Shown: positions 1 to 6,866 of the stretch, piece after piece
Layout: each line of letters opens with the position of its first letter
Position numbering within the stretch: position 1 is the first letter of the stretch
DNA from: a virus
Taxonomy: Duplodnaviria > Heunggongvirae > Uroviricota > Caudoviricetes
DNA length: 6,866 bases
IMG/VR virus record: IMGVR_UViG_3300049597_000266
Strand: one strand, 5' to 3'
Translations under genes and position numbers: made by a program
Notes under the pieces: generated by a model
The model's input: only the letters and a program-made list of their open reading frames with translations
Database searches by the model: none
What the model was told of the DNA's origin: nothing

Positions 1-318
1 AACCCGCTGGCAAACCGCAAGCAGAATCCTGCCAATCTCTTTACCGCTGCAGAGGAAACGGTGATCGAACTGGAGGAAGTCCAGGACGACAAACCGTCCC
101 TGTTTTCCCGCGTCACGGCGCTGTTCACCAAAAAAGAGCAGTCCGATGACGCCCGGTTCTCTGATGTGCATAAGGCCGTGGAGCTGGTCGCCACTGAGCA
201 GCAAAACCTGAGCGCGCGAACCGAAAAATCTCTGTCTGAGCAGGAAGAACGCCTGTCTGAACTGGAGTCTGCTCTGCAGAAGCAGCAACGGGCAATGCCT
301 GTAGTTCCACACTGGTGA
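1..318 (+). CDS. Partial CDS (5' end outside window) for a hydrophilic, coiled-coil-like protein of unknown function, upstream of the lysis genes
   Basis: Frame 1 is open from nt 1 to TGA 316-318 (106 codons). Translation reads ...NPLANRKQNPANLFTAAEETVIELEEVQDDKPSLFSRVTALF...EERLSELESALQKQQRAMPVVPHW. It is E/Q/K-rich with no hydrophobic segment. GC content and codon usage match the flanking phage genes. No family recognised by eye. The ORF-track start at GTG 61 is arbitrary because the frame continues to the window edge. Confidence 0.35.
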   Translation, partial: NPLANRKQNPANLFTAAEETVIELEEVQDDKPSLFSRVTALFTKKEQSDDARFSDVHKAVELVATEQQNLSARTEKSLSEQEERLSELESALQKQQRAMPVVPHW

Positions 319-458
319 AATTGCTCAATCAGCGGCGCTGGGCAGATGCGTGCCGACAGTTGCCGCGCTGGGTTTATGTAAAAGGTGTGTTTAATCAGGG
401 GCTGGATAACCGCCGTGCGCGGGAGATGGCCTGGTGCCTTAAAGGAGCTGGACTATGA
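261..458 (+). pseudogene. C-terminal remnant of a GH24 (T4/P21-type) phage endolysin; N-terminal catalytic part absent
   Basis: Frame 3 between TGA 258-260 and TGA 456-458 translates to TGSCSAEAATGNACSSTLVKLLNQRRWADACRQLPRWVYVKGVFNQGLDNRRAREMAWCLKGAGL. This matches my recollection of the C-terminal motif of P21 R / RrrD-type lysozymes (GN..STLL.K.NQ....AC.QL.RW.Y..GK...GL..RR..E..CL). The stop overlaps the lysB ATG (ATGA), the usual endolysin-spanin junction. Upstream of 258 all three + frames lack lysozyme-like sequence and frames 2 and 3 contain stops (209-211, 237-239, 258-260). No ATG lies within the remnant. Confidence 0.5.
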
Positions 459-883
459 CGCGTGCGCTGGCAGTAGTGGTGGCGCTGGCACTCGTTGCGC
501 TGGGCTGGCAGTCGTGGCGGCTTAACAGCGCCAGCCACACCATCGAAACGCAGCGCGCGGCGCTGAAAAGTAAAGCGCAGGAACTGACGAAGAAAAACAG
601 CCAGCTTATCAGCCTGTCCATTCTGACTGAAACCAATAACCGGGAGCAGGCGCGGCTCTATGCCGAAGCAGAACAGACCAGTGCACTGCTGAGACAACGA
701 CAACACCGGATCGAGGAACTGAAACGTGAGAACGAGGATTTACGCCGCTGGGCTGATACTCCTTTGCCTGCTGACATTATCCGGCTGCGGGAACGTCCGG
801 CACTCACCGGAGGTACAGCTTACCGTCAGTGGTTGTCCGCGAGTGACGCCGTGTCGGCTGGATCAGGCAACGCCGCGCACTAA
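455..883 (+). CDS. lysB: LysB, Rz-like inner-membrane spanin (i-spanin)
   Basis: 142-aa ORF with ATG 455 preceded by AAGGAG (442-447). N-terminal hydrophobic helix (ALAVVVALALVALGW), then a coiled-coil-like region (QRAALKSKAQELTKKNSQL...RQRQHRIEELKRENEDLRRW). The C-terminal ENEDLRRWADTPLPADIIRLRERPA resembles my recollection of P2 LysB. Position directly after the endolysin and before lysC/R fits. Confidence 0.85.
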   Translation: MTRALAVVVALALVALGWQSWRLNSASHTIETQRAALKSKAQELTKKNSQLISLSILTETNNREQARLYAEAEQTSALLRQRQHRIEELKRENEDLRRWADTPLPADIIRLRERPALTGGTAYRQWLSASDAVSAGSGNAAH

Positions 884-1016
884 CGGTGATCTGAACGCGT
901 TGCTGGATGAAACGGAGGCCGCCTGGGCGGTCTGTGCAGACAAAGTGGACATGATTATTGCGTGTCAGGAGCGAAACAGTGAACAAACCACAATCCCTGC
1001 GCCACGCCCTCAATAA
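726..1016 (+). CDS. lysC: LysC, Rz1-like outer-membrane lipoprotein spanin (o-spanin), in the +1 frame overlapping lysB
   Basis: 96-aa ORF beginning inside lysB in another frame and extending 133 nt past the lysB stop (overlapped architecture, as in P2). N-terminus MRTRIYAAGLILLCLLTLSGC has a positively charged start, hydrophobic core and lipobox L-S-G-C. Mature part is Pro/Cys-containing with a proline-rich C-terminus (TTIPAPRPQ). GAGGAA lies 8 nt upstream of GTG 726; the exact start codon is uncertain. Confidence 0.8.
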   Translation: MRTRIYAAGLILLCLLTLSGCGNVRHSPEVQLTVSGCPRVTPCRLDQATPRTNGDLNALLDETEAAWAVCADKVDMIIACQERNSEQTTIPAPRPQ

Positions 1017-1410
1017 AGCGGTGCCTTATGTCCGCAATAACCCGGACAAACTGCATCTGTTTGTGGATAACGGTTCGCTGGTTGCCACGGGGGCCAGCTC
1101 CATGTCGTGGGAGTACCGTTACACCCTGAACGCGGTGATTGAGGATTTCAGCGGCGACCAGAATCTGCTGATGGCCCCGGTTTTGCTGTGGCTGCGGGAT
1201 AACCAGCCCGATGCCATCAATAACCCGGCGTTACGGGAAAAACTATTTACCTTTGAGGTGGATATTCTGCGCAACGATGTCTGTGATATCAGCCTTAACC
1301 TGCATCTGACGGAACGTGTGCTGGTCAGCACTGACGGCAGTGTGTCGAGCGTTGAAGCTGTAGCAGAACCCGATGAACCTGAAGAAATGTGGACGGTGAA
1401 ACGTGGCTGA
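979..1410 (+). CDS. R: Tail completion protein R (P2 gpR-like)
   Basis: ORF reading MNKPQSLRHALNKAVPYVRNNPDKLHLFVDNGSLVATGASSMSWEYRYTLNAVIEDFSGDQNLLMAPVLLWLRDNQPD... resembles my recollection of P2 gpR. Start chosen as GTG 979 with AGGAG at 967-971; the ORF-track start at TTG 958 is an alternative. The start overlaps the lysC 3' end, and the TGA stop at 1408-1410 overlaps the S start. Confidence 0.8.
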   Translation: MNKPQSLRHALNKAVPYVRNNPDKLHLFVDNGSLVATGASSMSWEYRYTLNAVIEDFSGDQNLLMAPVLLWLRDNQPDAINNPALREKLFTFEVDILRNDVCDISLNLHLTERVLVSTDGSVSSVEAVAEPDEPEEMWTVKRG

Positions 1411-1849
1411 ACTGCAGACGGTGGACGACTGGCTTAGTGCCTTACTGGCGAATCTGGAACCAGTCGCAAGAAGCCGCATGATGCGCCAGCTGGCGCAGGA
1501 ACTGCGCCGGACACAGCAGCAGAATATCAGGATGCAGCGCAATCCAGATGGCAGCAGTTATGAACCGCGCAAGGTCACGGCGCGCAGTAAAAAAGGCCGC
1601 ATCAAACGTCAGATGTTTGCAAAGCTGCGCACCACCAAATACCTGAAAACCGCCGCCAGCGCCGACTCTGCCAGCGTACAGTTTGAAAGTAAGGTGCAGC
1701 GCATTGCCCGCGTTCACCATTATGGCCTGCGCGATCGCGTCAGCCGCAAAGGACCGGAAGTGCGTTACGCAGAGCGTCGTTTGTTGGGTCTTAATGGTGA
1801 GTCTTACGTTCTAACTCGTGATATATTGAATAGATTCCTTCTGTCTTGA
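1403..1849 (+). CDS. S: Tail completion protein S (P2 gpS-like); last ~17 codons lie in the AT-rich island (probably a chimeric C-terminus)
   Basis: 148-aa ORF with motif LEPVARSRMMRQLAQELRRTQQQNIRMQRNPDGSSYEPRK matching my recollection of the P2 gpS N-terminal region. GTG 1403 overlaps the R stop by 8 nt. From about nt 1798 the codons become AT-rich and rare for enterobacteria (cta, ata, aga) up to the stop at 1847-1849. Confidence 0.8.
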   Translation: MAELQTVDDWLSALLANLEPVARSRMMRQLAQELRRTQQQNIRMQRNPDGSSYEPRKVTARSKKGRIKRQMFAKLRTTKYLKTAASADSASVQFESKVQRIARVHHYGLRDRVSRKGPEVRYAERRLLGLNGESYVLTRDILNRFLLS

Positions 1850-2597
1850 ATTCACCATATGCCCAATGAATTGCATTTTTTTGTTCAGTCAGAATATATT
1901 TCCTAACTTTTTTAGAATAGTGAATGGTCAGTATAAAACCCAAAGAAATCCATAATAGAATAAATATGGTTGTTGGGGCAAAGGAATAGATAAAGAATTT
2001 GTCTTTAACGAAATTCTTGACTTCTTCATCAATGTAAGTATTCCCTTCATCAGAGGTTAGTAGTTTACAAAGAATTTCTTTATGTTCTATAGTTAATGAT
2101 TTGTACTTCTCTGTACTGGCAGAGGATGACTCTTCGCAATCATCTTTTGATATTTCCCAATCAGGAGTGGTTAATATTGTAGCTGCAGTCGCCAGTTTTT
2201 TTGACATATAAAATGATTCACCGGACTTTATCCAATAAAGCAATGTGCTATTTGGTGGGGTTCTAATGGCTTGGATGAAAACTGGACCAAAAATATAAAT
2301 TGCACACAAAAAAAGAAGTGAAAAGAGAACCGTGATTGATTTTTCAGCCCATGTGATAGTAGGCAGCCTTTTTAATGATATTCGTATAAGAAAAAAATTT
2401 AATATAAACGCAGGTATTCCTGATTTTTTCAAAATTACATCATGAGATTTTCTATATTTGAATAGTGCTCTTATAACTATCGTCACCAAAGTTATAACAG
2501 CTCCAATAATGGAAATCCATGCGGCAAGTGCCGCTGCCGGGGTGTTTAAAAATTCAGCATTAAATATATTAGAACTTATTGGATTCATAACACTCAT
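1791..2597 (-). CDS. Hypothetical four-helix integral membrane protein (268 aa) encoded by the AT-rich moron; function unknown
   Basis: An 807-nt ORF uninterrupted in ~30% GC DNA, where stops are frequent by chance. ATG at 2597 (minus) is preceded by GGTGGATAA (RBS-like). Four hydrophobic segments: AAALAAWISIIGAVITLVTIVIRALF, IPAFILNFFLIRISL (weaker), ITVLFSLLFLCAIYIFGPVFIQAI and FFIYSFAPTTIFILLWISLGFILTIHY. A hydrophilic, acidic ~90-aa domain sits between helices 3 and 4. Its 3' end overlaps the S 3' end convergently by 59 nt. No homology recognised. Confidence 0.65.
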   Translation of the reverse strand: MSVMNPISSNIFNAEFLNTPAAALAAWISIIGAVITLVTIVIRALFKYRKSHDVILKKSGIPAFILNFFLIRISLKRLPTITWAEKSITVLFSLLFLCAIYIFGPVFIQAIRTPPNSTLLYWIKSGESFYMSKKLATAATILTTPDWEISKDDCEESSSASTEKYKSLTIEHKEILCKLLTSDEGNTYIDEEVKNFVKDKFFIYSFAPTTIFILLWISLGFILTIHYSKKVRKYILTEQKNAIHWAYGEFKTEGIYSIYHELERKTHH

Positions 2598-2700
2598 TTA
2601 TCCACCTATTGGTTGTTTTTTATCCTTTTATCAATTTGTACCATCGATACCACAATTTGCAAGAAGTTATAAACAAGTTTTCAGCTGTCATCATATATCT
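1795..2700. other. AT-rich island (~30% GC against ~55% in flanks) at the S-V junction; probable horizontally acquired moron
   Basis: Abrupt compositional shift visible by eye. One 60-nt sample (1861-1920) counts 17 G+C (28%). The island carries one long ORF on the minus strand and is bounded by the tail genes S (left) and V (right). No terminal inverted repeats or target-site duplications were seen. Confidence 0.7.
2637..2654 (+). promoter_or_regulatory. TGT-N12-ACA dyad, candidate Ogr/Delta-type activator site of the P2 late promoter for the V operon
   Basis: Sequence TGT ACCATCGATACC ACA at 2637-2654 (palindromic core ATCGAT), flanked by direct repeats CAATTTG (2632-2638 and 2653-2659). 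It lies about 55 nt upstream of the V ATG, in the intergenic region between the divergent moron ORF and V. P2 late promoters are known to carry TGT-N12-ACA centred near -55. The -10 and transcription start are not resolved; TATAAA at 2669-2674 and TATAT at 2694-2698 are candidates. Confidence 0.35.
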
Positions 2701-3279
2701 ATGAACGCACAACTAACCGAAATCATGCGCCTTATCACCAATCTGATCCGCATAGGTGTAGTCACCGAAGTGGACCGGGAAAACTGGCTTTGTCGGGTGA
2801 AAACGGGCGACCTTGAAACCAACTGGATCAGCTGGCTGACGCTGCGCGCGGGTAATGCCCGCACATGGTGGCGACCATCGGAAGGTGAGCAGGTGGTGCT
2901 GCTGAGTCTGGGCGGCAATCTGGAGACTGCCTTTGCGCTGCCCGCTGTCTATTCGAATCAGTTCGCACCACCGTCGACGTCGGCGGACGCCTGCGTGACA
3001 GAACATCCTGACGGTGGCTGGTTTGAATACGAACCCGCCACCGGGCGCTGGTATGTCAGGGGCATCAAATCAATGGTCATTGAGGCCGCTGATAACATCA
3101 CCATGAAAACCAGTGAGTTTGTACTGGAGGCTGACCGCACGCGCATTAACAGCGAAGTGGTGATCAATGGTGGCGTTACCCAGGGCGGCGGAGCGATGAG
3201 TTCTAACGGGATCGTGGTTGATGCGCATCAGCATACTGGCGTCCTGAAAGGCGGCGATACAACCGGAGGCCCGGTATGA
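2701..3279 (+). CDS. V: Baseplate assembly / spike protein V (P2 gpV-like)
   Basis: 192-aa ORF, MNAQLTEIMRLITNLIRIGVVTEVDRENWLCRVKTGDLETNWISWLTLRAGNARTWWRPSEGEQVVLLSLGGNLETAFALPAVYS..., matching my recollection of P2 gpV (..IRTGIIVETD..CRVQTG..WLTHRAG..RTWWAPSVGEQV..GGELDTAF.LP). Start placed at ATG 2701, the first ATG after the AT-rich intergenic region; ATG 2725 is an alternative. No clear Shine-Dalgarno. The ORF-track extension back to 2458 is rejected. Confidence 0.85.
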   Translation: MNAQLTEIMRLITNLIRIGVVTEVDRENWLCRVKTGDLETNWISWLTLRAGNARTWWRPSEGEQVVLLSLGGNLETAFALPAVYSNQFAPPSTSADACVTEHPDGGWFEYEPATGRWYVRGIKSMVIEAADNITMKTSEFVLEADRTRINSEVVINGGVTQGGGAMSSNGIVVDAHQHTGVLKGGDTTGGPV

Positions 3280-3635
3280 CGCTTTATAGCGGGATGAACA
3301 ATACCAGCGGCAAAGTCATTACTGATATTGACCATCTGCGCCAGTCGGTGCGGGACATTCTGCTGACGCCGCAGGGTAGCCGCATTGCTCGCCGTGAATA
3401 TGGTTCCCTGCTGTCGGCACTGATAGACCAGCCACAAAATCCGGCGTTACGCCTGCAGGTCATGTCGGCAGTGTATGTGGCGCTGAGTCGCTGGGAGCCA
3501 CGGCTGACGCTGGATTCCATCACCATTAACAGCAATTTTGACGGTTCAATGGTGGTGGGACTGACCGGGCGGCGTAATAACGGTGTGCCTGTTTCCCTTT
3601 CCGTATCAACAGGAGCAGAGAATGGCAGTGATTGA
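3276..3635 (+). CDS. W: Baseplate wedge protein W (P2 gpW, T4 gp25-like)
   Basis: 119-aa ORF with ATG overlapping the V stop (ATGA) and GGAGG 8 nt upstream. Sequence ...RQSVRDILLTPQGSRIARREYGSLLSALIDQPQNPALRLQVMSAVYVALSRWEPRLTL... is typical of the GPW/gp25 family. Confidence 0.9.
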   Translation: MTLYSGMNNTSGKVITDIDHLRQSVRDILLTPQGSRIARREYGSLLSALIDQPQNPALRLQVMSAVYVALSRWEPRLTLDSITINSNFDGSMVVGLTGRRNNGVPVSLSVSTGAENGSD

Positions 3636-4530
3636 CCTTTCGCAGTTGCCTGCGCCGCAGATTGTCGATGTGCCGGACTTTGAGACGTTGCTTGCCGAAC
3701 GCAAGGCCGAATTTGTTGCGCTTCATCCGAAAGATGAGCAGGAAGCCGTGATCCGCACGCTGGAACTGGAATCTGAACCCGTCACCAAATTGCTGCAGGA
3801 GAATGCTTACCGTGAGTTGCTTCTGCGCCAGCGCATTAACGAAGCCGCGCAGGCGGTGATGGTGGCTTACGCGATGGGCGGCGATCTTGACCAGCTCGCT
3901 GCCAACTACAACGTGAAACGCCTGACGGTGACGCCTGCTGATAATGACGCTGTGCCGCCCGTTGCGGCTGTGATGGAAAGCGATGAAGCGTTACGCCTGC
4001 GTGTGCCTGCAGCCTTTGAAGGGCTTTCAGTTGCGGGGCCAACTGCAGCCTATGAATTTCATGCCCGAAGCGCCGACGGTCGGGTGGCGGATGCCAGTGC
4101 AACCAGTCCGGCACCTGCAGAGGTGGTACTGACTGTCCTTAGCCGTGAAGGCGACGGAACAGCAGAAAAAGACCTGCTGGATGTGGTGGAAAAAGCCCTG
4201 AACAGTGAGAACGTCCGCCCGGTGGCTGACCGTCTGACGGTTCGCAGCGCAGAAATCATCCCGTATCGCGTGGAAGCCACCATTTTTCTCTATCCGGGAC
4301 CGGAAGCAGAGCCGGTAATGGCAGCGGCAAAAGCCAGCCTGCAGAAGTACATCGCCAGTCAGACGCGTCTTGGTCGGGATATTCGCCGTAGCGCCATCTT
4401 TGCCGCCTTGCATGTTGAGGGTGTGCAGCGTGTGGAGCTGGCTTCTCCTCTGGCGGATGTGGTCCTGAACAAAACACAGGCGGCATCATGTACGCAGTGG
4501 AGCGTAACCAACGGAGGAACGGATGAATAG
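3622..4530 (+). CDS. J: Baseplate assembly protein J (P2 gpJ-like)
   Basis: 302-aa ORF from ATG 3622 with AGGAG at 3611-3615. Sequence MAVIDLSQLPAPQIVDVPDFETLLAERKAEFVALHPKDEQEAVIRTLELESEPVTKLLQENAYRELLLRQRINEAAQAVM...RLGRDIRRSAIFAALHVEGVQRVELASPLADVVL matches my recollection of P2 gpJ. Overlaps the W 3' end by 14 nt. The ORF-track start at 3583 is an in-frame upstream extension. Confidence 0.9.
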   Translation: MAVIDLSQLPAPQIVDVPDFETLLAERKAEFVALHPKDEQEAVIRTLELESEPVTKLLQENAYRELLLRQRINEAAQAVMVAYAMGGDLDQLAANYNVKRLTVTPADNDAVPPVAAVMESDEALRLRVPAAFEGLSVAGPTAAYEFHARSADGRVADASATSPAPAEVVLTVLSREGDGTAEKDLLDVVEKALNSENVRPVADRLTVRSAEIIPYRVEATIFLYPGPEAEPVMAAAKASLQKYIASQTRLGRDIRRSAIFAALHVEGVQRVELASPLADVVLNKTQAASCTQWSVTNGGTDE

Positions 4531-5043
4531 TCTGCTGCCACCGGGTTCAACACCACTGGAGCGCCGACTGGCGCAAACCTGCAGCGGGATTTCTGATCTG
4601 CAGGTGCCGCTTCGTGACTTGTGGAATCCGGCAACCTGTCCGGTCAGTTTCCTGCCTTATCTCGCCTGGGCGTTCTCTGTGGATCGCTGGGACGAGGACT
4701 GGACAGAAAGTGTCAAGCGCCAGGTGGTGAAGGATGCTTTTTATATTCATCAGCATAAAGGGACCACCAGTGCCGTGCGGCGGGTGGTGGAGCCGTTCGG
4801 CTTTCTGATCCGCATTATTGAGTGGTGGCAGACCGGATAAGCGATGCCAAACCATGCAGCCGTCACATGATCGGCATGTCCATCAACCTGCAGACCAGCG
4901 GCCCGCATTGGGTGGGAGCCGCCAGCTATCTTGGCGAAGAAATCACGATCTATCCGTATATCAACGAAACAATTATTTCCGGTGGCACCGCGCATGAAGG
5001 CGGGGCGGTCCATGTTATTGACACAATGAGAGTGAATCCATGA
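4523..5043 (+). pseudogene. I: Baseplate protein I (P2 gpI-like), interrupted by a frameshift near 4819-4840
   Basis: The N-terminal 105-aa ORF (4523-4840, frame 2) carries typical gpI motifs (LWNPATCPVSFLPYLAWAFSVDRWDEDW...VVEPFGFLIRIIEWW). The downstream ORF (4822-5043, frame 1) resembles the gpI C-terminus (DAKPCSRHMIGMSI...EEITIYPY). The two overlap by 19 nt, and the combined span (521 nt) is 1 nt short of a single ~173-codon gene. The ATG overlaps the J stop; the second ORF's stop overlaps the H ATG. Confidence 0.6.
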
Positions 5044-6662
5044 GCACAAAATTTTATACCCTGCTGACGGATATTGGCGCGGCGAAACTTGCCAGCGCCG
5101 CCGCGCTCGGTGTGCCTTTAAAAATTACCCATATGGCGGTCGGCGATGGCGGCGGAGTATTGCCAACGCCGGATGCAAAGCAGACTGCACTGGTGAATGA
5201 GAAACGCCGGGCTGCGCTGAATATGCTCTATATCGACCCGCAGAACAGTAGCCAGATTATTGCTGAACAGGTAATCCCTGAAAATGAGGGCGGTTGGTGG
5301 ATACGTGAAGTGGGCCTGTTTGATGAGTCCGGGGCATTGATTGCCGTGGGAAACTGCCCGGAAAGCTATAAGCCGCAACTGGCTGAAGGCAGTGGGCGTA
5401 CCCAGACCGTGCGCATGGTGCTGATTACCAGCAGCACGGACAATATCACCCTGAAAATCGACCCTGCCGTCGTGCTGGCAACCCGCAAGTATGTGGATGA
5501 CAAGGTACTGGAGCTGAAGGTGTTCGTGGATGATAAGATGGCAAAACATCTTGCCGCACCGGACCCGCATTCACAGTATGCACCCAAAGAAAGCCCGACA
5601 TTGACCGGAACACCCAAAGCGCCAACGCCAGCGGAGGGGAATAACACCACGCAGATTGCGACCACCGCGTTTGTTCAGGCGGCACTGATGGCCCTTATTA
5701 ATGGTGCGCCAGCCACACTGGATACGATGAAAGAAATTGCCGCTGCCATTAATAATGACCCGAAATTCAGTACCACCATTAACAATGCGCTGGCACTGAA
5801 AGCGCCGCTGTTAAGTCCGGCATTCACCGGAACGCCAACAGCCCCCACTGCCGCACAGTCGGTTAACAATACACAGATTGCCACCACGGCTTTTGTGAAA
5901 TCGGCAATTGCGGCAATGGTGGGGTCTGCACCTGCTGCACTGGATACACTGAACGAACTGGCTGCGGCGCTGGGGAATGACCCGAACTTTGCCACGACAA
6001 TGCTTAATGCGCTGGCAGGTAAACAACCGTTGGACAATACGCTGACTAATTTGAGTGGAAAGGATGTAGCTGGTCTTCTCGCATACCTTGGTTTGGGAGA
6101 TGCATTAATTGGTGATGAATGTAAAATTGCAGGGTTTGACAGTAGTAACGTCAATGCCCCGTATATGCGATTCGCCAGAACAAATACAGTAGTTCGTCTG
6201 GCAACAAAAGACTATGCGCAACCAAAAGACCAGACACTGACAGATTTAAGCGGTAAGGATAAGGCTGAACTAAGAACTTATCTTGATCTGAAAAGTGCGG
6301 CTCAAAGGGATGTTGGCTCAGGGGCAAATCAGATTCCGGATATGAATGACTTCACATCCAGCCTGACCAGCCCTGGCTGGCAAAAATTACCGTCAGGTCT
6401 GATTATTCAGTGGGGGGCAGCCAATCCATCATCAACTGGAGAGATCTTTATTACGTTTCCTGTCGCGTTCTCTGCATACCCGATGTATGTGGGATTTGGT
6501 CCTCAGCAGGCATCGCTTCCTAACGTAGTTCAGTCGCCAGTAATTTCAGCGCCAACGATAACTAATTTAGGATGCGGCGTCCGAAATCTGATGATTCCAA
6601 CAGCGGGCGGAGCACCAGTAGCCAGCATGAGTTCATTTTTCTGGATTGCGGTAGGGAAATAA
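5040..6662 (+). CDS. H: Tail fibre protein H (P2 gpH-like N-terminus with a divergent C-terminal receptor-binding region)
   Basis: 540-aa ORF. N-terminus MSTKFYTLLTDIGAAKLASAAALGVPLKITHMAVGDGGGVLP...GGWWIREVGLFDESGALIAVGNCPESYKPQLAEGSGRTQTVRMVLITSS matches my recollection of the conserved baseplate-attachment domain of P2 gpH. The region SPAFTGTPTAPT...NTQIATTAFV...LDTLNELAAALGNDPNFATTMLNALAGKQP also matches P2 H. The C-terminal third (from about 6030) is divergent and lower in GC. Confidence 0.9.
   Translation: MSTKFYTLLTDIGAAKLASAAALGVPLKITHMAVGDGGGVLPTPDAKQTALVNEKRRAALNMLYIDPQNSSQIIAEQVIPENEGGWWIREVGLFDESGALIAVGNCPESYKPQLAEGSGRTQTVRMVLITSSTDNITLKIDPAVVLATRKYVDDKVLELKVFVDDKMAKHLAAPDPHSQYAPKESPTLTGTPKAPTPAEGNNTTQIATTAFVQAALMALINGAPATLDTMKEIAAAINNDPKFSTTINNALALKAPLLSPAFTGTPTAPTAAQSVNNTQIATTAFVKSAIAAMVGSAPAALDTLNELAAALGNDPNFATTMLNALAGKQPLDNTLTNLSGKDVAGLLAYLGLGDALIGDECKIAGFDSSNVNAPYMRFARTNTVVRLATKDYAQPKDQTLTDLSGKDKAELRTYLDLKSAAQRDVGSGANQIPDMNDFTSSLTSPGWQKLPSGLIIQWGAANPSSTGEIFITFPVAFSAYPMYVGFGPQQASLPNVVQSPVISAPTITNLGCGVRNLMIPTAGGAPVASMSSFFWIAVGK
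5592..6029 (+). repeat. Two tandem ~72-aa (216-nt) tail-fibre repeat units within H
   Basis: Residues 185-256 (SPTLTGTPKAPTPAEGNNTTQIATTAFVQAALMALINGAPATLDTMKEIAAAINNDPKFSTTINNALALKAP) and 259-330 (SPAFTGTPTAPTAAQSVNNTQIATTAFVKSAIAAMVGSAPAALDTLNELAAALGNDPNFATTMLNALAGKQP) align over their full length with about 60% identity; nt 5592-5807 and 5814-6029. Confidence 0.8.
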
Positions 6663-6663
6663 T

Positions 6664-6866
6664 ATGTACAAATACAGTGCTAAAAAAAATGCGTTTTATC
6701 TGGCTGGTAATGAGGCCGTATACCGCGATTCCGGCACATGGCCTGATGATGCAAAAGATATTGAAACCCGACGTGCCGAGTCGTTTATGGCGACACCTCC
6801 GCAGGGTAAGCGACGTATTGCAGGTGCAGACGGAATGCCTGCGTGGGCAGATATTCCTTCACCCAC
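6664..6866 (+). CDS. Partial CDS (3' end outside window), putative tail-fibre assembly chaperone (gene G position)
   Basis: ATG at 6664, 1 nt after the H stop; frame open to the window end (67 codons): MYKYSAKKNAFYLAGNEAVYRDSGTWPDDAKDIETRRAESFMATPPQGKRRIAGADGMPAWADIPSP. Position immediately downstream of the tail fibre gene and the N-terminal NAFY...Y...G.WPDDA pattern suggest a Tfa-type chaperone. Assignment is mainly by synteny. Confidence 0.5.
   Translation, partial: MYKYSAKKNAFYLAGNEAVYRDSGTWPDDAKDIETRRAESFMATPPQGKRRIAGADGMPAWADIPSP

Follow-up and report, generated by a model that had tools for sequence, protein, structure and literature searches.

The divergent C-terminus of tail-fibre protein H in the P2-like prophage of Escherichia coli B is very probably one arm of a Din-type invertible segment

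The stretch of DNA analysed here (the window; 6,866 nucleotides) was identified as part of the defective P2-like prophage of E. coli B and BL21. Positions 4836-6866 were 100% identical to BL21(DE3), REL606 and about 45 other B-lineage genomes, and positions 1-4837 were 99.94% identical. The upstream differences between the window and BL21(DE3) consist of three substitutions and an 85-bp deletion, the latter located in gene I, which is disrupted in the window. The prophage adjoins ybjL and carries retron Ec86; the E. coli W genome paper names it solely as the carrier of this retron (PMC3032704). The locus thus sits in BL21 and REL606, the strains most used for protein expression and experimental evolution. 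In order, the window contains a gpO remnant, a K stub, lysB/lysC, R, S, a DUF6216 open reading frame (ORF) on the minus strand, V, W, J, I, H and the start of a tail-fibre assembly gene. The DUF6216 ORF is low in GC; its assignment to P2 Orf30, which occupies the same slot, was rejected, as the similarity was not significant (E = 0.047). An Rfam scan of the whole window returned no families at threshold. Deletion has removed the sheath, tube and tape-measure genes, along with related ones, from the E. coli B prophage, which can no longer build a tail. From H onwards, the gene order in BL21 is H, tfa (plus strand), tfaE (minus strand), a 180-aa fibre fragment (minus strand), a truncated recombinase and a truncated gpD. 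The features of H and of the gene that follows it are listed below by window position.

5040-6662, plus strand: H, 540 aa, with the gp53-like tip ON (from the ORF list; RefSeq 'phage tail protein' WP_000104800.1 in BL21(DE3))
5040-5489, plus strand: Phage_tail_fib (PF12571), the baseplate-proximal N-terminal domain, residues 1-150 (Pfam E = 1.4e-64)
5040-6089, plus strand: constant part of H, residues 1-350, outside the predicted invertible segment (94-96% nucleotide identity to P2-like phages, which ends here)
6076-6101, no strand assigned: left crossover site, 26 bp
6090-6662, plus strand: variable part of H, residues 351-540, inside the predicted invertible segment (GC 0.46; delimited by the homology break and by composition)
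6231-6299, plus strand: second copy of a TLTxLSGKDxAxLxxYLxL motif, residues 398-420
6384-6656, plus strand: Gp53-like_C (PF21882), lectin-fold, residues 449-539 (Pfam E = 4.5e-12)
6664-6866, plus strand: first 67 codons of a tail-fibre assembly chaperone (145 aa in full; from translation), running to the window end and inside the predicted segment

H belongs with P2 gpH, as indicated by its Phage_tail_fib domain and by the gene order V-W-J-I-H, and its N-terminal part is near to those of the P2-like phages Cartapus, KP12 and 813R9. Also within the constant part is an internal duplication of 74 aa (5591-5684 and 5813-5906). A sequence-only reading of the window had described H as a short mosaic fibre that matches P2 gpH closely over its first ~330 residues and then, from about nucleotide 6030, becomes AT-richer and diverges, as the result of a horizontal exchange. 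The protein is indeed shorter than P2 gpH (540 versus 669 aa), and its C-terminal end, ...FFWIAVGK, is exactly as quoted there. The shift in composition was also confirmed, with GC falling from 0.541 in 5040-6087 to 0.464 in 6088-6662 (chi-square p = 0.0037), compared with 0.54-0.58 for the backbone genes V, W, J, R and S. Similarity to P2 gpH had been overstated: in a BLASTP comparison, identity was 53% over 332 residues. The alignment stopped at residue 332 (~nt 6035). Divergence beyond this region was real, but it had been placed too far upstream. A maximum-likelihood fit put the GC change point at nt 6020 (support interval 5695-6108). In a megablast search of 50,697 phage records (48 matches), P2-like matches with 94-96% nucleotide identity all ended at query positions 1048-1064, corresponding to window 6088-6104. 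The abrupt break falls at the crossover site (6076-6101), ~60 nucleotides downstream of the position first given.

The left crossover site reads TTCTCGCATACC TT GGTTTGGGAGAT, with the central TT at 6088-6089, and encodes L-L-A-Y-L-G-L-G of H; the exchange point, 6088/6089, falls in codon L350. It was the sole match to the Din-site consensus in the window, with 0.00 matches expected from 200 shuffles. The window holds this site and one cassette, and the remainder of the segment was read from BL21(DE3) (sequence L001). The remainder lies beyond the window end, and the invertible segment was therefore invisible to the earlier reader. An inverted partner was present in BL21(DE3) on the minus strand of L001 at 12125-12150, reading TTTTCTTAAACG TT GGTTTGGGAGAA. 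The two sites, at L001 10037-10062 and 12125-12150, make up an inverted 25/26-nucleotide repeat with complementary TT/AA cores, 2,088 bp apart from core to core. Several half-site positions differ between left and right, whereas the cores match. The locus therefore has the pair of ~26-bp inverted sites with matching 2-bp cores that characterizes Din-type systems. Between the sites lie two opposed cassettes, each consisting of a tip and a Tfa chaperone:

plus strand: H residues 351-540, 190 aa, with Gp53-like_C at residues 449-539
plus strand: Tfa chaperone, 145 aa (Caudo_TAP, E = 2.2e-29)
minus strand: TfaE chaperone, 200 aa (Caudo_TAP)
minus strand: fibre fragment, 180 aa, with a Collar domain

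Automatic annotation leaves a short opposite-strand fibre fragment next to a partial recombinase unexplained, and this pattern recurs in many genomes. Inversion in silico at the central TT joined L350 in frame to the minus-strand fragment, yielding a 516-aa protein, H', with a predicted flipped junction that reads ...CATACCTTGGTTTGGGAGAAGACTCT.... The site thus lies inside the fibre ORF, and inversion exchanges the 3' end of the ORF in frame, as in Din-type systems. The flipped arrangement exists in natural relatives. H' was identical to the actual H of strain 2017.15.01CC at 502 of 516 positions (97%), with no gaps, and 54 records (58 genomes) matched a 600-nucleotide probe of the flipped junction in one uninterrupted piece over 80% or more of its length. 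The top match (98.0%) was strain 2017.15.01CC, which is not a B strain. Both cassette orientations occur across related prophages.

What the data very probably show is an invertible segment of 2,088 bp, belonging to the Gin/Cin/Pin (Din) class of serine-invertase systems, whose currently expressed arm supplies the divergent C-terminus of H. H is composite, with a separate lower-GC receptor-binding module of ~190 residues, as the sequence-only reading had it; its further claim of a one-off horizontal exchange is very probably wrong, the joint being itself the recombination site of an invertible segment of the programmed Gin/Pin type. In the proposed mechanism, the fixed residues 1-350 of H would be transcribed from the phage late operon, with the 26-bp crossover site in the reading frame at 6076-6101 and its inverted copy 2.1 kb downstream. 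The invertase would cut at both central TTs, and the strands would rotate and rejoin with the segment flipped. In one orientation, H would carry the 190-residue tip ending in the gp53-like lectin-fold domain, followed by the 145-aa chaperone; in the other, H would run in frame into a tail-collar-type tip of 166 residues, with the 200-aa TfaE behind it. Each tip would confer a different receptor specificity. Such inversion would have taken place in an ancestor of the E. coli B prophage. In E. coli B itself, a deletion has shortened the invertase to 80 residues and taken out the genes from sheath to gpD, and the switch would therefore be locked with the gp53-like tip ON.

Directly after the right site, 80 aa of a serine invertase remain, fused by a deletion to the C-terminal part of gpD. 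The stub is identical to the Cartapus invertase at 79 of 80 positions and 79% identical to Mu Gin over 80 aa. The catalytic Ser9 is kept, while residues 81-188, including the HTH_7 domain, are missing. No intact invertase (Resolvase domain plus HTH_7) adjoins the segment, whereas relatives have the full 188 aa, and the locus is a decayed, non-working member of the Din-type class. The flipped junction was absent from the B assemblies (~45 B-lineage), all of which showed a single orientation. When the first 240 bp of the invertase gene were used in a blastn search (word size 11), exactly one place was found per B-lineage genome, among the matches listed, compared with a median of two places and a maximum of eight in other E. 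coli. Given the truncated invertase, the one invertase-like place per B genome and the lack of flipped B assemblies, the switch in E. coli B is probably frozen with the gp53-like tip ON. A frozen switch would explain the invariance of B genomes at this locus.

It is also conceivable that the switch is live in E. coli B and is flipped rarely by an invertase of another prophage acting in trans. Both crossover sites appear intact and the 5' region of the invertase gene is retained. Gin/Hin-type enhancers are located in this 5' region, and a Fis-dependent enhancer is expected in the 5' coding part. Action in trans by Pin paralogues has been documented in K-12, in which PinQ and PinR flip the e14 P segment (PMC12529663). 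However, the single invertase-like place noted above holds for every B-lineage genome, again among the matches listed; nor did any B assembly carry the flipped junction, the best match to which was outside the B lineage. We therefore consider live switching quite unlikely, and favour a switch that is frozen in E. coli B.

The tip that is ON in E. coli B was examined by domain, structure and fold searches. The Gp53-like_C domain scored 46.8 bits, above the Pfam cut-off of 24.9, and sequence matches of the tip in the PDB were to the R1 pyocin fibre (6cxb) and AP22 gp53 (4mtm). An AlphaFold model of the tip had pLDDT values of 80-93 over residues 445-540; residues 351-395 had pLDDT below 50 and are unreliable. 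With the confident domain, the best Foldseek matches were 6cxb, 6cl5, 6cl6, 4mtm and 6ct8 (probability 1.00, E ~1e-5), followed by lectins. R-pyocin fibres bind core LPS through their lectin-fold region (PMC6363177, PMC6116203). By analogy of fold, at 17-21% sequence identity, the receptor of the gp53-like tip is probably a surface saccharide such as LPS core.

The chaperone gene that follows H was likewise analysed at full length. The 67-aa part present in the window scored 17.1 bits on its own, below the Caudo_TAP cut-off of 22.1. Similarity of the 145-aa Tfa to other chaperones was confined to its C-terminal ~75 residues (34% to TfaE and 29% to P2 gpG, the latter with E = 0.075). This pattern fits a modular model of Tfa proteins, in which a variable N-terminal domain binds the fibre tip and the C-terminal domain is conserved (PMC9608196). 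The sequence-only reading had called the N-terminus of the chaperone atypical, which is correct relative to P2 gpG and incorrect overall, the full-length protein being a standard Caudo_TAP member (E = 2e-29); a differing N-terminus should simply be the expected look of a cognate chaperone for a different tip. The same reading had suggested that chaperone and tip were acquired together, and this was borne out. A Tfa of identical sequence (WP_000280166.1) adjoins the module in an unrelated prophage, and a 145-aa Tfa is found in two further backbones; in all, Tfa accompanies the tip module in loci L005, L007 and L010. The unit of exchange is therefore tip plus chaperone, bounded by a recombination site. 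These module boundaries, that is, the L350 exchange point and a tip with its own chaperone, could serve in re-targeting P2-type fibres or tailocins.

The distribution of the cassette was determined by database searches. Megablast located the variable part together with tfa (window 6101-6866) in 48 of the 5,426 complete E. coli genomes, and almost all 48 are B derivatives. A tblastn search of the phage collection with the tip gave no full-length match and none above 60% identity; the exact cassette occurs in prophages only and is absent from deposited phage genomes. In GZ2408P, the same site (CTCTCGAAAACC TT GGTTTGGGAGAT) links an unrelated fibre N-terminus of 115 aa to a module 99.3% identical to that of E. 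coli B, and the host element is a non-P2 contractile-tail prophage adjoining bioA. VREC0864 has the identical Tfa WP_000280166.1 and the distal two-thirds of the module, both in the OFF orientation and next to an invertase that is intact. CP038791.1 is an e14-like element, with an icd side, an mcrA-like HNH gene, Pin and a Mu-type baseplate, and is 91% identical in nucleotide sequence to the B segment over 1.56 kb. It carries the full tip (99% identical) and a 145-aa Tfa in the OFF position, a collar tip and a 202-aa Tfa in the ON position, and an intact Pin. Finally, in PSS-08-1 an intact invertase accompanies the 540-aa H, but an alternative cassette is lacking and the right half-site is degenerate.

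Residues 333-355 of H (NTLTNLSGKDVAGLLAYLGLGDA) span the crossover site, and the motif that they contain is present a second time at residues 398-420 (QTLTDLSGKDKAELRTYLDLKSA). The second copy (6231-6299) is identical to 6036-6104 at 14 of 23 aa and 42 of 69 nucleotides, and includes a decayed homologue of the crossover site at 6271-6296, in which 8 of 20 consensus positions are kept. With so few positions kept, we rejected the idea that the second copy is a live extra site, as in the multi-site Min system of p15B or the four-variant EPEC locus. In the VREC0864 prophage (L007), a live crossover site occupies the exact homologous position. We infer that the second motif copy is a fossil junction. 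Homologues of the tip in the databases fall into two classes, one matching the whole 190 aa and the other only the distal 66-76%, and these two classes fit the fossil-junction reading. The 190-residue tip may accordingly have grown by the capture of an older, shorter cassette, in front of which a new stem of 64 residues now stands. More tentatively, and with some doubt on our part, crossover sites might act as portable splice points by which tip-plus-chaperone cassettes pass between unrelated backbones and stack. The notion of such splice points is an old one, as in Sandmeier-type motif shuffling. If it is true here, host-range evolution of P2-like, Mu-like and e14-like fibres would take one of its main routes through invertase sites and not through general recombination.

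The same observations could be taken to mean that H is a plain mosaic, in which a one-time homologous or illegitimate exchange brought in a foreign receptor-binding module and its chaperone with no programmed switching. The movement of the cassette among P2-like, e14-like (Mu-type baseplate) and bioA-adjacent prophage backbones, its GC content below that of the backbone, the serial acquisitions suggested by the nested second motif copy, and the 540-aa H of PSS-08-1, with its degenerate right half-site and no alternative cassette, would all agree with this. On the other hand, the joint falls, to the base, on a crossover site of Din type with an inverted partner; the opposed second tip and chaperone fuse in frame when inverted, and an invertase remnant follows. 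Horizontal transfer accounts for the origin of the cassette, not for the architecture of the locus, and we regard a plain mosaic as unlikely compared with a programmed invertible segment.

The H ORF is intact despite heavy deletion of the prophage, which raises the question of whether the host keeps the locked H, with its gp53-like tip, and the chaperone because they interfere with adsorption of other phages, a role put forward for the gp53-like StfE2 chimera of e14. In support of this, StfE2 carrying a gp53-like domain has been reported to block T2 adsorption (PMC12529663). However, a PADLOC scan of H and the DUF6216 ORF gave no matches to known defence models, and the upstream gene I is disrupted in the window. 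E. coli B is moreover permissive to T-phages, for which it is the classical host, and short-term intactness of an ORF is no evidence of selection. Retention for such a purpose is very unlikely.

Systems of this kind are already well described (the Mu G, P1 C and e14 P segments, and P2-like prophages), and the locus carries little weight for basic biology. The e14 P segment of K-12 (pinE, stfE/tfaE, stfP/tfaP) has the repeat TTGGTTTGGGAGAAGG, which shares its core with the left site (PMC12529663); the repeat core is nearly the same in the two systems, TTGGTTTGGGAGA.... The pair of cassette types is also common to both, one comprising a gp53-like tip with Tfa and the other a collar-type tip with TfaE. 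In contrast to e14, the B segment is built on the constant part of a P2-type H rather than on a Mu-type or lambdoid fibre stem, and its invertase is truncated. The K-12 e14 cassette is a different allele, and was absent from the megablast matches of the B cassette.

The layout of the B segment is identical to those of Mu G (S/U, S'/U', gin) and P1 C: a constant part, a 26-bp site within the ORF, two inverted cassettes and an invertase gene directly downstream. Their sites have an A(A/T)ACC-NN-GGTTT core in common with the B sites, and in Mu gixL/gixR the annotated boundary of the G segment is the central dinucleotide, the same layout as in the B sites. The B segment differs in length (2.1 kb versus ~3 kb), in its core (TT, not TC), in its unrelated tips and in having no functional invertase. 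Among fibres with the same tip fold, the R-type pyocin foot and AP22 gp53 (6cxb, 6cl5, 6cl6, 4mtm) share with the B tip a C-terminal lectin-like beta-sandwich (PF21882), although sequence identity is 17-21% and both host genus and fibre shaft are different.

The closest counterparts are P2-like. Cartapus (Peduoviridae) has the same site and gene order, an annotated Gin homologue and an H constant part with 95% nucleotide identity. Strain 2017.15.01CC, which is 98% identical in nucleotide sequence around the junction, is in the mirror orientation, with the collar tip ON and the gp53-like tip OFF. In its complete P2-like prophage, the 516-aa H is followed by a Tfa of 200 aa and then, on the opposite strand, by a 142-aa Tfa and a gp53-like fragment; an intact invertase (188 aa) and the sheath gene come next. 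In EPEC, experiments have demonstrated inversion at the tail-fibre loci of P2-like prophages (PMC4272514). Compared with the B prophage, these relatives (Cartapus, EPEC E2348/69 and 2017.15.01CC) have an intact invertase, full tail genes and a different tip ON. P2 itself shares the N-terminal Phage_tail_fib domain of H, at the 53% identity over 332 aa given above, and has neither an invertible segment nor an invertase; its distal ~290 aa are unrelated to the B tip, and its gpG has a weak likeness to the B Tfa over the C-terminal ~70 aa (E = 0.075). P2 H nevertheless retains a relic site, TTATCGAATATCTCGGTTTACAGGAA, at the equivalent position (~codon 379), with 22/26 identity to Mu gixL. Measured from this relic site, of the 129 aa by which H falls short of P2 gpH, ~29 lie on the proximal side and ~100 belong to the distal module.

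Phage P2 has no invertase, yet its tail-fibre gene H carries a relic resembling gixL (TTATCGAATATCTCGGTTTACAGGAA), identical to gixL of Mu at 22 of 26 positions. The position of the relic corresponds to that of the live Gin/Pin-type crossover site within H of the B prophage. A P2-like prophage in strain PSS-08-1 was also compared.

L002 (phage P2) 5858-5883: gixL-like relic inside gene H
L006 2433-5110: P2-like prophage of strain PSS-08-1

The PSS-08-1 prophage encodes a 540-aa H of the same type as that of the B prophage, together with an intact invertase, and has no alternative cassette; the right half of its crossover site is replaced (TTCTCACATACCTTGGATTAACCGGC). This arrangement looks like a second, independent route to locking of the same tip.

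Two gene junctions in the B prophage mark deletions.

Window 1-458: C-terminal end of the gpO scaffold and C-terminal stub of the endolysin, a glycoside hydrolase (L001 annotation)
L001 12206-12846 (BL21(DE3)), downstream of the window: invertase stub-gpD fusion

At the first junction, the end of gpO runs directly into the endolysin (K) stub; therefore the capsid, terminase-small, head-completion and holin genes of the O-K interval are deleted. At the second, the 80-codon invertase stub abuts the last ~130 codons of gpD, and ogr comes next; a single deletion in BL21(DE3) took the remainder of the invertase together with the genes from FI up to and including most of D.

Comparison with B-lineage genomes revealed a further, smaller deletion in gene I.

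Window 4523-4840: gene I ORF, with an 85-bp deletion at 4836-4837

The absent 85 bp correspond to L001 8714-8798 and are retained in all B-lineage complete genomes; the deletion was found in none of the complete E. coli genomes of the collection. The sequence at the deletion junction, GGA|TAA, introduces a stop codon, so that gpI is 105 aa long in the window, compared with 201 aa without the deletion. Besides this deletion, the window differs from BL21(DE3) by three substitutions, at 1419, 2054 and 2088.

Two further ORFs were noted, one between S and V and one beside the portal gene.

Window 1791-2597, minus strand: ORF of 268 aa (Pfam DUF6216, E = 1.6e-11)
L001 1-490 (BL21(DE3)), upstream of the window: retron St85-family reverse transcriptase

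The DUF6216 ORF has a GC content of 0.33, versus 0.54-0.58 in its surroundings. The same S-V slot in P2 holds Orf30, which is non-essential and likewise antisense; similarity between the two was not detectable, and a PADLOC scan of the DUF6216 ORF returned no matches. The ORF probably represents a moron that occupies a variable slot. The reverse transcriptase, which in BL21(DE3) adjoins this prophage's portal gene, is that of retron Ec86 of E. coli B (PMC3032704).

The constant part of H (residues 1-350) contains an internal repeat.

Window 5591-5684 and 5813-5906: direct repeat of 94 nt

The two copies are 71% identical with a spacing of 222 nt, giving a 74-aa internal duplication in the protein (SPTLTGTPKAP... 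and SPAFTGTPTAP...).
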